Of a DNA stretch of 64,000 nt, positions 1,510 to 3,520 are shown piece after piece. The stretch is from positions 1,020-65,019 of the forward strand of contig CAYJVT010000002.1 in the NCBI GenBank assembly GCA_964373695.1. The letters are read 5' to 3'. Source of the DNA: an uncultured archaeon. Lineage in GTDB: Archaea; Aenigmatarchaeota; Aenigmatarchaeia; GW2011-AR5. A model generated the notes under the pieces. The model saw nothing but the letters and a program-made list of their open reading frames with translations. It made no database searches and was not told where the DNA came from. A program made the position numbers and the translations under genes. The first letter of the stretch is position 1. Every line of letters begins with the position of its first letter.

Positions 1510-2729
1510 TGAAAAAGTTCGTTCTTGTTGTCTTGGACGGCATGGCCGACGACCCCAAAGGCACACTGCTGGAGGAGTGCAATACACCGAATATGGACGA
1601 GATGTGCCTGAAGGGTAGCATGGGAACCGTCAGCGTCCTGCCAAAGTCCGGGAAGCTTCCGCAGTCGGACGAGGCGATATTCTCGCTTCTGGGAATGGAC
1701 ACGAGCAAGGGATATCCTGGAAGGGGGCCTGTCGAGGCTCTGGGATGCGGCTGCATAAAGGAACATGACAAAAACTACCTTGCATTAAGGACCAACTTCG
1801 AAACCGTTGGTAGCAGGGGCTCCATATGGAATTCTAGGGTAAAGGACAGGAGGGTCGGGAGGAGCCTGACGACAAAAGAGGCGAAAATCCTTGGAAAGTC
1901 CCTGAACGGCATTGACATAGGCTGCGATTTCACATTCATGCCGACTGTCGAGCACAGGGGCGCACTTGTCCTGAAAGGGGAGTTCTGGAAGGCCGCGGAC
2001 ACGGACCCGTCGTACAAAGGAGGCGGCAGCCCGCGGAAATCCGGGCTCCGCGAGCTGGATTCTTTCATAGAGCAGGCGCACGAACTCCTGTCGTCCCACA
2101 GGATAAACAAAGAGCGCGCCGGAAAGGGTATGCTTCAGGCCAACGCCGTCCTTACAAGGGATGCAGGAAGCAGGCTGCCTGACATGAAGGCCGTCATGTC
2201 GTCTTACGGAATGAAATGGTGCGCCATAGTCGGCATGCCGCTGGAAATAGGCATCGCAAAGGTGTGCGGTATGGGAATAAGGCGCTTCAAATATCCGGAA
2301 ATAAGCGGGAAATCTCTGAAGGACCTTTATGGAAAGCATTTTCATCCATCACTGGAAAAGACTTCGAGGATGTCGGAGAAGCTTCTGGAGGACAGTTTCG
2401 ACGATTTTGACGCCTTCTGGCTCCACCTGAAGGAGTTTGACATTGCAGGACATGACGGGAGGCGCGGCGACAAGAAGAAGATGATAGAGACTGCTGACAG
2501 GAACCTGTTTTCCTTTCTGAATGGCCTGGATGCCGCAGTCGTTGTAACGTCAGACCATGCCACGCCGTGCAGGATGAAGTCGCATTCCAGCGACCGCGTC
2601 CCGCTGGTGCTTTACGGAAAGGCGGACGGTATGAGAAAGACTTTTTCGGAGAAGGACTTCGCAGAGGGCTCGCTGGGAAATATAAAAGGTCACGAGCTCA
2701 TAACCAAGGTAATGGGAATGATGAGATGA
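1506..2729 (+). CDS. apgM: 2,3-bisphosphoglycerate-independent phosphoglycerate mutase, archaeal type (ApgM)
   Basis: 407 aa. N-terminal VLVVLDGMADDP metal-binding region, internal TSDHATPC, and C-terminal GHELITKVMGMM are typical of archaeal iPGM. Start overlaps the deoA stop (ATGA). Confidence 0.85.
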   Translation: MMKKFVLVVLDGMADDPKGTLLEECNTPNMDEMCLKGSMGTVSVLPKSGKLPQSDEAIFSLLGMDTSKGYPGRGPVEALGCGCIKEHDKNYLALRTNFETVGSRGSIWNSRVKDRRVGRSLTTKEAKILGKSLNGIDIGCDFTFMPTVEHRGALVLKGEFWKAADTDPSYKGGGSPRKSGLRELDSFIEQAHELLSSHRINKERAGKGMLQANAVLTRDAGSRLPDMKAVMSSYGMKWCAIVGMPLEIGIAKVCGMGIRRFKYPEISGKSLKDLYGKHFHPSLEKTSRMSEKLLEDSFDDFDAFWLHLKEFDIAGHDGRRGDKKKMIETADRNLFSFLNGLDAAVVVTSDHATPCRMKSHSSDRVPLVLYGKADGMRKTFSEKDFAEGSLGNIKGHELITKVMGMMR

Positions 2730-3520
2730 TACTAGTAAAGAAGGCTGACGGCAGGAAGGAGGAATTCTCTCCAGATAAGATACTCAATACCTGCATGCGG
2801 GCCGGGCTGTCGAGGAAGGCCGCTGAAAACATCGTAAGGAAAGTGGAATCCAGACTCTTTGACGGCATAAGAACCCACGACATATATGAGATGGTACTGA
2901 AGGAATTGGAGAGGATTGAAGACAGGTCCTCCATGGTCTTCAGGCTGAGGGAGGCCGTTTCCGAGATACCGTCCGACAAGTTCGAGCTCTACGTGAAAAA
3001 GCTGCTTGAATTGTACGGCTACAAGTGCCAGTGGAACGTGCTGGTAAAAGGCAAGTACGTTGAGCATCAGGTCGACATACTGGCCGAGAAAAGCGGGAAG
3101 AAATATCTTGTGGAATGCAAGCACCACATAAACCCCCACAGGTTCTGCGGTCTCGGGATTATTCTCCAGGTCAGGGGAAGGCTGGAAGACATACAGGACG
3201 GCTTCATGGAAAGGAAAAACCGCCTTAACTTCTCCGCCGCATGGGTCATAACCAACACCAAATTCTCCGAGCACGCCAAGATGTACGCGAACGGGAGGGA
3301 CATCATGCTGTCGGGGTGGAAATACAAGGCCAGGAACTCGCTTGAAAACATGATACAGGCGAAGAAACTCTATCCAATATGTATAATAAAGATGGACAAG
3401 GCACTGAAAAAAACCCTCTTTGAGCGTGATATAATAACAATACAGGACGCCATGGCAGCCGAAATCAAGGACAAAAAGGCGTCTGAATATATAAAAACAC
3501 AGGCAAAGCTGCTTGCCTGA
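2726..3520 (+). CDS. ATP-cone domain fused to Mrr-like PD-(D/E)xK restriction-endonuclease domain
   Basis: Start chosen at internal Met (MILVKKADGRKEEFSPDKI) overlapping the apgM stop. N-terminal ~90 aa match ATP-cone (NrdR-like). The C-terminal half has the HQVDILAEK...YLVECKHH PD-(D/E)xK signature. Confidence 0.7.
   Translation: MILVKKADGRKEEFSPDKILNTCMRAGLSRKAAENIVRKVESRLFDGIRTHDIYEMVLKELERIEDRSSMVFRLREAVSEIPSDKFELYVKKLLELYGYKCQWNVLVKGKYVEHQVDILAEKSGKKYLVECKHHINPHRFCGLGIILQVRGRLEDIQDGFMERKNRLNFSAAWVITNTKFSEHAKMYANGRDIMLSGWKYKARNSLENMIQAKKLYPICIIKMDKALKKTLFERDIITIQDAMAAEIKDKKASEYIKTQAKLLA

Follow-up and report, generated by a model that had tools for sequence, protein, structure and literature searches.

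The last gene of a metabolic operon in an uncultured archaeon of the Aenigmatarchaeota encodes an ATP-cone sensor domain joined to a PD-(D/E)xK nuclease. It lies in the window, the stretch of 64,000 nucleotides analysed here, and probably serves housekeeping, not defence. Since its conserved neighbours are enzymes that draw carbon and energy from nucleotides by breaking them down, and not defence genes, the product is probably a nucleotide-gated nuclease that feeds nucleic acid into salvage. The specific role favoured here, to which we assign a probability of roughly 0.5, is that adenylates gate the nuclease and that it provides the pentose-bisphosphate salvage route with nucleotides.

Both halves of the protein match Pfam families above their cut-offs: ATP-cone (PF03477) at residues 3-67 with 42.0 bits (cut-off 25.8) and Mrr_cat (PF04471) at residues 80-194 with 36.6 bits (cut-off 21). 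This agrees with the preliminary description, which had proposed an ATP-cone fused to a Mrr-like PD-(D/E)xK nuclease. In the predicted structure (pLDDT 95), an N-terminal beta-hairpin caps a helical bundle, which is the fold of an ATP-cone, and the core has the alpha-beta-beta-beta-alpha-beta fold of PD-(D/E)xK nucleases. The protein is closely akin to AF1548 from Archaeoglobus fulgidus (PDB 1Y88, E=1.4e-28), a structural-genomics protein of unknown function that shares the Mrr_cat and AF1548-like_C domains. However, AF1548 has no ATP-cone, with only about 23 residues before its core, and it lacks equivalents of H114 and H138, which are both conserved in the archaeal ATP-cone clade. A cluster of H114, H134, H138 and C141 was considered as a metal site and rejected, as conservation of H138 and C141 does not extend to the wider family.

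The small C-terminal domain is less obvious in the window protein itself, where AF1548-like_C reaches only 12.3 bits. A profile of the family's C-termini matches residues 125-195 of 1Y88 in the PDB (E=3.8e-12), and PF22357 is precomputed for this domain in many homologues. The domain may bind nucleic acid. An HhH or alpha-CTD-like DNA binder was considered as well; the profile search against the PDB was significant for AF1548 alone, with the RNAP alpha-CTD and uS4 below threshold (E ~1). Another protein, P0175 (523 aa), has an extension at its C-terminus that resembles a serine hydrolase by sequence motifs only; it may be a gene-calling chimera, and it was uninformative as a Rosetta-stone fusion.

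The catalytic residues are E87 (nt 2984-2986), D117 (3074-3076, GAC), E130 (3113-3115, GAA) and K132 (3119-3121, AAG). The DILAEK and ECK motifs quoted in the preliminary description are found in the translated ORF at D117-K122 and E130-K132, respectively. The E...D...ExK signature is intact, and its four residues are invariant in 29/29, 135/135 and 148/148 sequences, the largest set being family representatives that were picked by profile and not by motif. D155 is likewise invariant in all 148 representatives, and N177 and W198 of the nuclease core are, like D155, invariant or nearly so. The equivalent residues of AF1548 were earlier predicted to be catalytic (PMC1821046). This conservation suggests that catalysis is likely retained in the window protein.

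The conserved positions of the ATP-cone are K6, G9, E12, K18, T50, Y54 and R75. In E. coli NrdA, the residues compared as nucleotide contacts are K9, R10, E15, K21, T55 and H59. K6, G9, K18 and T50 show 89-97% conservation in the family and align with K9, G12, K21 and T55 of NrdA, while position 54 varies between Y, L, F and H. The sensor is likely to be functional, as far as can be judged from sequence. Because the equivalent of E. coli NrdA R10 is mostly Ala (in about half of the members, with variable residues in the rest), the nucleotide preference of the cone is not predictable; ATP-cones are able to hold AMP, ADP, ATP and dATP (10.1101/2025.03.28.645925). Since most of the nucleotide-contacting positions are kept, the natural reading is that of a nuclease switched by adenine nucleotides. 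The original suggestion of a defence nuclease switched by ATP or dATP would thus keep its switch, whereas the role of defence or stress effector is not borne out.

The nuclease gene is the last, translationally coupled cistron of an operon for nucleotide salvage and lower glycolysis, in the order R15P isomerase, AMP phosphorylase, phosphoglycerate mutase (PGM) and nuclease gene (Table 1). Both junctions in the window, between AMP phosphorylase and PGM and between PGM and the nuclease gene, are 4-nt ATGA overlaps. AMP phosphorylase, which has the Pfam domains Glycos_trans_3N, Glycos_transf_3 and PYNP_C, is the first operon gene within the window; R15P isomerase probably precedes it, outside the window, as the start of the operon, which is the case in the orthologous locus L001. 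The best NCBIfam match of the PGM gene is apgM (TIGR00306) with 278 bits, under the cut-off of 320. Downstream, a terminator-like hairpin is likely, on weak evidence, to be the end of the operon transcript (the consensus scan gave 2 sites against 0.7 expected). The TtuA/NcsA-like gene that follows is a conserved neighbour, yet it is convergently transcribed. The two upstream operon genes and the C-terminal domain had gone unremarked in the preliminary description. A TA cassette (5013-5488), described there as tRNA-integrated, is a strain-specific insertion and is not tRNA-integrated, since the tRNA-Gly is at 6696-6787 with another gene in between.

Table 1. The nuclease gene, its domains and its surroundings, in window coordinates.
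Feature	Position	Strand	Remarks
AMP phosphorylase (DeoA-type, 500 aa)	7..1509	+	TIGR03327 AMP_phos 544.8 bits, cut-off 535 (NCBIfam)
ApgM, archaeal cofactor-independent phosphoglycerate mutase, 407 aa	1506..2729	+	Pfam PhosphMutase, Metalloenzyme
ATP-cone/PD-(D/E)xK nuclease gene	2726..3520	+	264 aa plus stop; ATG at 2726, TGA at 3518-3520; ATG overlaps apgM stop (ATGA)
ATP-cone sensor domain, residues 1-80	2726..2965	+	beta-hairpin plus helical bundle
PD-(D/E)xK nuclease core (Mrr_cat / AF1548-type), residues 81-199	2966..3322	+	
Small helical C-terminal domain, AF1548-like_C, residues 200-264	3323..3517	+	profile match to 1Y88
Terminator-like hairpin, T-rich tail	3580..3612	+	between nuclease gene and convergent TtuA/NcsA-like gene; consensus scan
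TtuA/NcsA-like gene	3622-4548	-	convergent to nuclease gene

The gene is real and constrained, with hundreds of full-length homologues and a dN/dS of 0.10 against the 92%-identical L001 orthologue. Selection on it is strongly purifying and similar to that on the neighbouring metabolic genes (0.14 and 0.075). Clustering at 50% identity gives at least 506 clusters for the family (E<=1e-30 to the archaeal profile), besides thousands of bacterial relatives.

The archaeal AMP or pentose-bisphosphate pathway, in the outline given in PMC5113843 after Sato 2007 and Aono 2012/2015, consists of AMP phosphorylase, R15P isomerase and type III RuBisCO; no nuclease is included in that outline. The nuclease gene shares an operon with the genes for these enzymes in Aenigmatarchaeota, and in Bathyarchaeia it lies next to them. 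The cluster in Aenigmatarchaeota has the order [GAPDH-PGK]-R15P isomerase-[type III RuBisCO]-AMP phosphorylase-PGM, with the ATP-cone nuclease gene at the end, and the PGM slot is filled by three non-homologous types (ApgM, the dPGM His_Phos_1 and the iPGM_N GpmI). In Bathyarchaeia, one locus (L063) reads AMP phosphorylase (-), RuBisCO (+), R15P isomerase (-), nuclease gene (+), and another (L067) reads nuclease gene, R15P isomerase, AMP phosphorylase. Gene-context surveys in CPR and DPANN that deal with RuBisCO, deoA and e2b2 (PMC6389311, PMC5113843) do not mention the nuclease gene.

A conserved, co-directional and closely spaced association with the genes for AMP phosphorylase, R15P isomerase and RuBisCO is seen in half of the informative loci. 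Among the 106 unique loci with sufficient upstream sequence, AMP-pathway or PGM genes are found at most four genes away in 53, and PGM is directly adjacent in 43. The median gap between the upstream PGM or AMP phosphorylase gene and the nuclease gene is 5 nt (58 unique loci). The reverse also holds: when loci were seeded from AMP phosphorylase homologues, regardless of the presence of the nuclease gene, it was found downstream in six out of eight. Synteny is stable across orthologues that are merely 42-50% identical. Genes for a P-type ATPase and for SDR/thioredoxin proteins also recur among the neighbours.

A related cassette is found in Bacteroidota and Chlamydiota, where it is carried by a Pontibacter plasmid, a Criblamydia plasmid and a Cyclobacterium contig. 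It combines the ATP-cone nuclease, whose Pontibacter orthologue is WP_237151220, with a beta-CASP RNase, an AMP-phosphorylase-type enzyme and a PRPP-synthetase-like (Prs-like) enzyme. The beta-CASP protein is of the RNA type, with an RMMBL domain, and its best PDB match is RNase TTHA0252 (E=8e-75). The phosphorylase has its best PDB match in 4GA5/4GA4 (E=8e-93), whereas true nucleoside phosphorylases match it at about 1e-36. The Criblamydia cassette has phosphoketolase, GlgP and acetate kinase on its flanks, and that of Cyclobacterium has PPK2.

In the favoured reading, the window protein would be a cytoplasmic, catalytically competent AF1548-type PD-(D/E)xK nuclease. The N-terminal ATP-cone probably gates it according to the pool of adenine nucleotides (ATP/dATP, possibly also ADP/AMP); the most likely mechanism is that nucleotides shift the oligomeric state of the protein, as they do in ribonucleotide reductases and NrdR. 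When the adenylate signal permits, nucleic acid would be cut and nucleoside monophosphates would pass into the pentose-bisphosphate route, leading from AMP phosphorylase to ribose-1,5-bisphosphate, RuBP, 3-phosphoglycerate and, through PGM, to ATP. The substrate could be RNA or DNA, cellular or imported; the bacterial cassettes point to RNA. For DPANN archaea, it has been proposed that nuclease-degraded DNA is fed into the AMP/pentose-bisphosphate pathway (PMC7414124).

Several observations count against a role in salvage, however. About half of the loci have no AMP-pathway neighbour, including those of Undinarchaeota, a second Aenigmatarchaeota clade, most CPR bacteria, Sporocytophaga and Flavobacterium. 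Much of the linkage signal in Aenigmatarchaeota comes from a single block of synteny passed on by vertical descent, and unrelated functions are often combined in the compact operons of DPANN. Furthermore, the products of PD-(D/E)xK endonucleases are oligonucleotides, not mononucleotides, so that an exonuclease partner is needed, and such a partner is evident in the bacterial cassettes only.

Among the other explanations, the protein could be a DNA-maintenance nuclease that acts in repair, recombination or replication in the manner of NucS or Hjc, with the cone tuning it to the dNTP/ATP pool and its place in the operon incidental or a matter of shared regulation. The neighbours in the second Aenigmatarchaeota clade (ScpB, HhH-GPD, Lhr and dCMP deaminase) would fit such a role, but most of these genes are encoded on the other strand, and they are restricted to this one clade. 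DNA maintenance is an unlikely function, as it leaves unexplained both why linkage to AMP phosphorylase recurs in three distant lineages whose gene orders differ and why the protein is paired with an RNA-type beta-CASP nuclease in bacteria. It is very improbable that the protein is instead an NrdR-like transcription factor, in which the cone would sense adenylates while the other two domains, the nuclease fold and the C-terminal one, would bind the operator of the salvage/glycolysis operon without cutting it. The combination of an ATP-cone and a DNA-binding module does follow the logic of NrdR, and one source labels a homologue 'NrdR family'. The gene is also embedded in the operon that it would control, and in L063 a 69-nt spacer separates it from the divergently transcribed R15P isomerase gene, as is typical for a regulator and its target. 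However, the invariance of the catalytic four and D155 in all 148 representatives is unexpected for a domain that only binds. The protein has no Zn-ribbon, since its N-terminus begins with the beta-hairpin of the cone, and the NrdR model TIGR00244 matches the cone region only, with 13.2 bits against a cut-off of 124.65. Whereas the cones of NrdR and ribonucleotide reductase (RNR) act on a Zn-ribbon DNA binder or a reductase, the output module here is a nuclease, and the R10 equivalent is usually Ala. No RNR gene is found among the conserved neighbours in 140 unique loci. Crude inspection of 51 operon-upstream regions, without a motif finder, revealed no shared palindrome or operator, only BRE/TATA-like motifs, which is a weak negative. 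The preliminary description had named a lost catalytic triad or an NrdR-like transcription factor as grounds for abandoning the nuclease assignment; neither was found.

A defence or abortive-infection effector, in which a Mrr-like nuclease is freed when infection perturbs ATP/dATP levels, would fit the common defence design of a sensor joined to a PD-(D/E)xK nuclease, and nucleotide pools do change upon infection. Can2/Card1, Cap4 and NucC are fold neighbours of the window protein, and PADLOC matches it to the ZorD nuclease domain (E=1e-9) and to CARF_PDDEXK (6.5e-4). However, these matches span the shared nuclease fold alone, that to CARF_PDDEXK being limited to residues 51-134, the nuclease region. 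The CARF/SAVED-nuclease effectors of type III CRISPR and CBASS systems read cyclic oligonucleotides, whereas the window cone is predicted to read bulk adenine nucleotides; the protein has no CARF or SAVED domain, and its neighbourhood is metabolic, with no cas or CD-NTase genes conserved in it. Type IV restriction enzymes and Mrr share the Mrr_cat family with the window protein, and AspBHI and MspJI are among its fold neighbours, but it has an ATP-cone at its N-terminus and no Mrr_N or other reader domain for modified DNA. In contrast to those enzymes, the gene is strongly conserved and syntenic and has no association with defence islands or mobile elements. The defence-island association that the preliminary description had envisaged is not seen: among 148 proteins flanking the loci without metabolic linkage, PADLOC finds no recurrent defence family except for matches to the 'dCTPase' model, which are to a 163-aa cytidine/dCMP deaminase of housekeeping type. 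Relatives are absent from 2.9 million viral contigs and 50,697 phage records, and they occur in only two of 72,556 plasmids, within a metabolic cassette in both cases. No adjacent methyltransferase is conserved. Together with the low dN/dS and the preservation of synteny between distant orthologues, these observations make a defence function improbable.

Returning to the salvage role, it is possible, although we advance this only tentatively, that a conserved pathway common to DPANN, Bathyarchaeia, Bacteroidota and Chlamydiota uses nucleic acid as fuel and as a source of nucleotides, with this protein as its entry step under the control of energy charge. The ATP-cone would report low adenylate, and the nuclease would then open RNA, such as rRNA, or nucleic acid that has been imported. 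Next, 5'-NMPs would be produced by an exonuclease, which in bacteria would be the co-encoded beta-CASP RNase, and AMP phosphorylase would convert them to ribose-1,5-bisphosphate. The ATP-yielding steps would differ: archaea would use RuBisCO and PGM, whereas bacteria would use phosphoketolase/acetate kinase or PRPP/PPK2. A literature search returned no paper on a link between ATP-cones and Mrr or AMP phosphorylase, nor on the proposed salvage role.

To our knowledge, ribonucleotide reductases and NrdR are the only proteins whose ATP-cones have been characterised as allosteric switches. If the entry-step reading is true, control of a nuclease by an ATP-cone would be seen here for the first time, and a third, very large class of ATP-cone outputs would broaden the allosteric-switch paradigm. 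The common database label of 'restriction endonuclease' misleads toward defence and is corrected by the present finding. The pentose-bisphosphate (AMP) pathway is thought to be the basis of DPANN and CPR life on scavenged nucleic acid, and we know of no dedicated, regulated nuclease that has been assigned to it. The entry-step reading would add a regulated, polymer-degrading first step to this pathway, and the ATP-cone nuclease gene is a concrete, testable candidate for its nuclease that also occurs in culturable Bacteroidota, such as Pontibacter.

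The preliminary description had read the 264-residue product of the gene as an ATP-cone joined to a PD-(D/E)xK nuclease, and this architecture is confirmed (ATP-cone and Mrr_cat), with an AF1548-like_C domain in addition. In a first alignment, E87, G109, H114, D117, E130, K132, H134, H138, L143, D155, N177, K179, S181, H183, G197 and W198 were invariant. Because motif patterns containing several of these residues had selected some locus sets, conservation was re-checked on 148 sequences, comprising the window protein and 147 representatives picked by profile search from 1.84 billion proteins. 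E87, D117, E130, K132 and D155 are found in 148/148 and N177 and W198 in 147/148; H138 and C141 are not general across this wider family. The triad D117, E130 and K132, which is thereby kept throughout, coincides with the predicted catalytic residues of Archaeoglobus fulgidus AF1548 (PMC1821046). In the cone, K6, G9, E12, K18 and T50 are conserved and align with K9, G12, E15, K21 and T55 of E. coli NrdA, and the equivalent of NrdA R10 is often Ala. Two close homologues, P0114 and P0115 (209 aa), start inside the last cone helix and as annotated lack the ATP-cone, which could reflect either mis-called starts or a naturally cone-less form.

The gene closes a run of three overlapping genes, a context that the preliminary description had not mentioned, the first encoding AMP phosphorylase (TIGR03327, 544.8 bits, cut-off 535) and the second the archaeal cofactor-independent phosphoglycerate mutase (PGM). 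The window is collinear with its closest relative, locus L001 from an Aenigmatarchaeota metagenome-assembled genome, where ribose-1,5-bisphosphate (R15P) isomerase precedes AMP phosphorylase. Neighbourhoods were sampled from 80 genome and 80 metagenome loci (140 unique proteins), with ORFs called, neighbours clustered and cluster representatives identified by Pfam and NCBIfam. In a large clade whose members share 42-92% identity with the window protein, the gene is nearly always the last in a co-directional cluster, [GAPDH-PGK]-R15P isomerase (IF-2B family)-[type III RuBisCO]-AMP phosphorylase-PGM-gene, usually with a convergent TtuA/NcsA-like gene downstream. This TtuA-like neighbour is conserved in 35 of the 140 unique loci; a ThiI/THUMP gene separates it from the nuclease gene in L162 and L168.

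Upstream sequence reached 1.3 kb or more at 106 loci; among these, AMP phosphorylase lies within three genes in 45, PGM is directly adjacent in 43 and any pathway gene lies within four genes in 53. The median gap to the upstream gene is 5 nt, with overlap at 15 of 58 junctions, and at a few loci the gene directly follows AMP phosphorylase. Three non-homologous enzymes occupy the PGM slot: a His_Phos_1 dPGM (L005, L008, L023, L036, L161), an iPGM_N-type GpmI (L007, L013, L093, L127, L132) and, at most of the other loci, ApgM. Across Aenigmatarchaeota lineages this is an in-situ non-orthologous displacement. L161 also carries a LAGLIDADG_3 homing-endonuclease gene just downstream of the nuclease, followed by a second His_Phos_1 gene, and L087 has a similarly duplicated dPGM.

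The association was also examined in reverse, from eight loci seeded with AMP phosphorylase homologues regardless of the gene. In six, it is the first or second gene downstream, in the same orientation. One exception was a Micrarchaeota contig without the gene; in the other, the R15P isomerase-RuBisCO-AMP phosphorylase cluster of L165, a 106-aa PF10107 gene (Endonuc_Holl, also PD-(D/E)xK) occupies that position and may, as a single example, be an analogous nuclease. Two Bathyarchaeia contigs from a different family clade have other arrangements beside the same pathway and are independent recurrences of the linkage: AMP phosphorylase(-), RuBisCO(+), R15P isomerase(-), gene(+) in L063, and gene, R15P isomerase, AMP phosphorylase, all (+), in L067.

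Coordinates of features in the window and in compared loci
Sequence	Positions (strand)	Feature
Window	1506-1509	PGM ATG overlapping the preceding stop
Window	2726-2729	ATGA, nuclease gene ATG overlapping the PGM stop
Window	2726-3520 (+)	ATP-cone nuclease gene
Window	3622-4548 (-)	TtuA/NcsA-like PP-loop tRNA thiolase, convergent
Window	4541-4729 (-)	ThiS-like GG-terminated carrier, convergent
Window	4933-4956; 5496-5519	~24-nt repeats (L001 10155-10178)
Window	4957-5495	Toxin-antitoxin insertion (compare L001 10114-10192)
Window	5013-5204; 5204-5488	DUF7557 + ParE genes
Window	6696-6787	tRNA-Gly(GCC), 92 nt (ARAGORN)
Window	26510-26595	'tRNA-Cys', 86 nt, anticodon ACA at odd position (ARAGORN)
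L161	8384-9226	LAGLIDADG_3 gene
L165	6930-7250	PF10107 gene
L063	8879-11806	P2-type ATPase
L066	4675-7095	P2-type ATPase
L070		P2-type ATPase
L170	1125-3833	P2-type ATPase
L172	1658-4282	P2-type ATPase
L173	12099-end	P2-type ATPase

Further along the window, the toxin-antitoxin cassette is an insertion of ~540 bp relative to L001, and its flanking repeats resemble a target duplication. It had been described as tRNA-integrated, but it is not adjacent to the tRNA-Gly. Each of the two overlong tRNAs is probably either intron-containing or a mis-modelled archaeal tRNA.

In bacteria, a tblastn search of 72,556 plasmids had just two matches, in Pontibacter actiniarum (Bacteroidota) and Criblamydia sequanensis (Chlamydiota). 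In both, the homologue (ATP-cone + Mrr_cat + AF1548-like_C) heads a tight four-gene cassette, followed by a beta-CASP RNase (Lactamase_B + Beta-Casp + RMMBL; best PDB match T. thermophilus RNase TTHA0252, E=8e-75), an AMP-phosphorylase-type enzyme and a PRPP-synthetase-like protein. The best PDB match of the third protein is 4GA5/4GA4 (E=8e-93), named 'putative thymidine phosphorylase' in the search output, which we take to be the T. kodakarensis AMP phosphorylase; the third protein is 37% identical to the window AMP phosphorylase and matches genuine nucleoside phosphorylases at only ~1e-36. In Criblamydia, genes for phosphoketolase, glycogen phosphorylase and acetate kinase lie around the cassette. 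A Cyclobacterium contig has the same cassette followed by PPK2, and a Saprospiraceae contig at least the gene and the beta-CASP RNase; the cassette is absent at the Sporocytophaga and one Flavobacterium locus. Members of the bacterial branch are very numerous: of 8,000 proteins scored, 7,522 reach E<=1e-10.

One recurrent neighbour, adjacent or close by, is a P2-type cation-transporting ATPase, seen in Bathyarchaeia, Shapirobacteria, Aenigmatarchaeota, Flavobacterium, Cyclobacterium and Criblamydia; it could point to a common stress regulon. In distant bacteria, a short-chain dehydrogenase and a thioredoxin stand beside the gene (L066, L072, L076 and L077 from CPR and 'Gammaproteobacteria' bins; L171 from Sporocytophaga).

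We put the probability that the protein is an adenylate-gated nuclease linked to nucleotide salvage at about 0.5. ATP-cones act through nucleotide-dependent assembly changes and can hold AMP, ADP, ATP and dATP (10.1101/2025.03.28.645925). In the simplest model, the cone would license or block the nuclease according to adenylate status, coupling nucleic-acid breakdown to the enzymatic conversion of NMPs to ribose-1,5-bisphosphate. In archaea this would proceed to 3-phosphoglycerate, a pathway summarised in PMC5113843, and down glycolysis by the co-operonic PGM. The protein has no signal peptide, which together with its intracellular-type sensor points to action in the cytoplasm. Use of nuclease-degraded DNA by DPANN has been proposed (PMC7414124). 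The RNA-type beta-CASP nuclease paired with the bacterial homologue suggests that the substrate is RNA, and this partner exonuclease would finish digestion to mononucleotides.

The preliminary description had called a defence or stress effector plausible. This reading holds in part: the putative nuclease keeps its catalytic residues, but distribution, context and selection all disfavour the defence role. Searches of 2.9 million viral contigs and 50,697 phage records turned up no relatives, and both plasmid copies lie inside the metabolic cassette. At loci without pathway linkage, the recurrent neighbours are housekeeping genes: PheRS, Mrp/ParA, a Na+/H+ exchanger and GlmS in Undinarchaeota; ScpB, NFACT, a small cytidine/dCMP deaminase, HhH-GPD and Lhr in a second Aenigmatarchaeota clade; MFS, SDR and thioredoxin in CPR bacteria. 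PADLOC detected no recurrent defence system among 148 flanking proteins; its sole repeated match there, 'dCTPase' (six times), is the 163-aa cytidine/dCMP deaminase, and its matches to the nuclease protein itself reflect the nuclease fold only. Comparison with L001, whose orthologue is 92% identical, gives dN/dS values of 0.10 for the gene, 0.075 for AMP phosphorylase and 0.14 for the PGM next to it.

A nuclease for DNA maintenance, with its activity set by dNTP pools, is plausible, given the NucS and Hjc-like fold neighbours and the DNA-metabolism genes near one clade, but it leaves the cross-domain linkage to AMP phosphorylase unexplained. The complete conservation of the catalytic residues speaks against a non-cutting regulator resembling NrdR; the protein reaches only 13 bits with the NrdR model (cut-off 124.65) and has no Zn-ribbon.

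The domain combination is already in databases as 'restriction endonuclease', 'ATP cone domain-containing protein', 'ATPase' or 'Holliday junction resolvase', and the nuclease half is represented by a 2004 crystal structure without assigned function (AF1548, PDB 1Y88). A literature search found no paper on the fusion or its AMP phosphorylase link, and the gene goes unmentioned in published work on the genomic context of RuBisCO, deoA and e2b2 in CPR/DPANN (PMC6389311, PMC5113843). The protein would belong to two known kinds at once, the allosteric sensor-nuclease and the ATP-cone switch, the latter with an output of a new type, and the salvage-linked function proposed for it is a specific and testable hypothesis.
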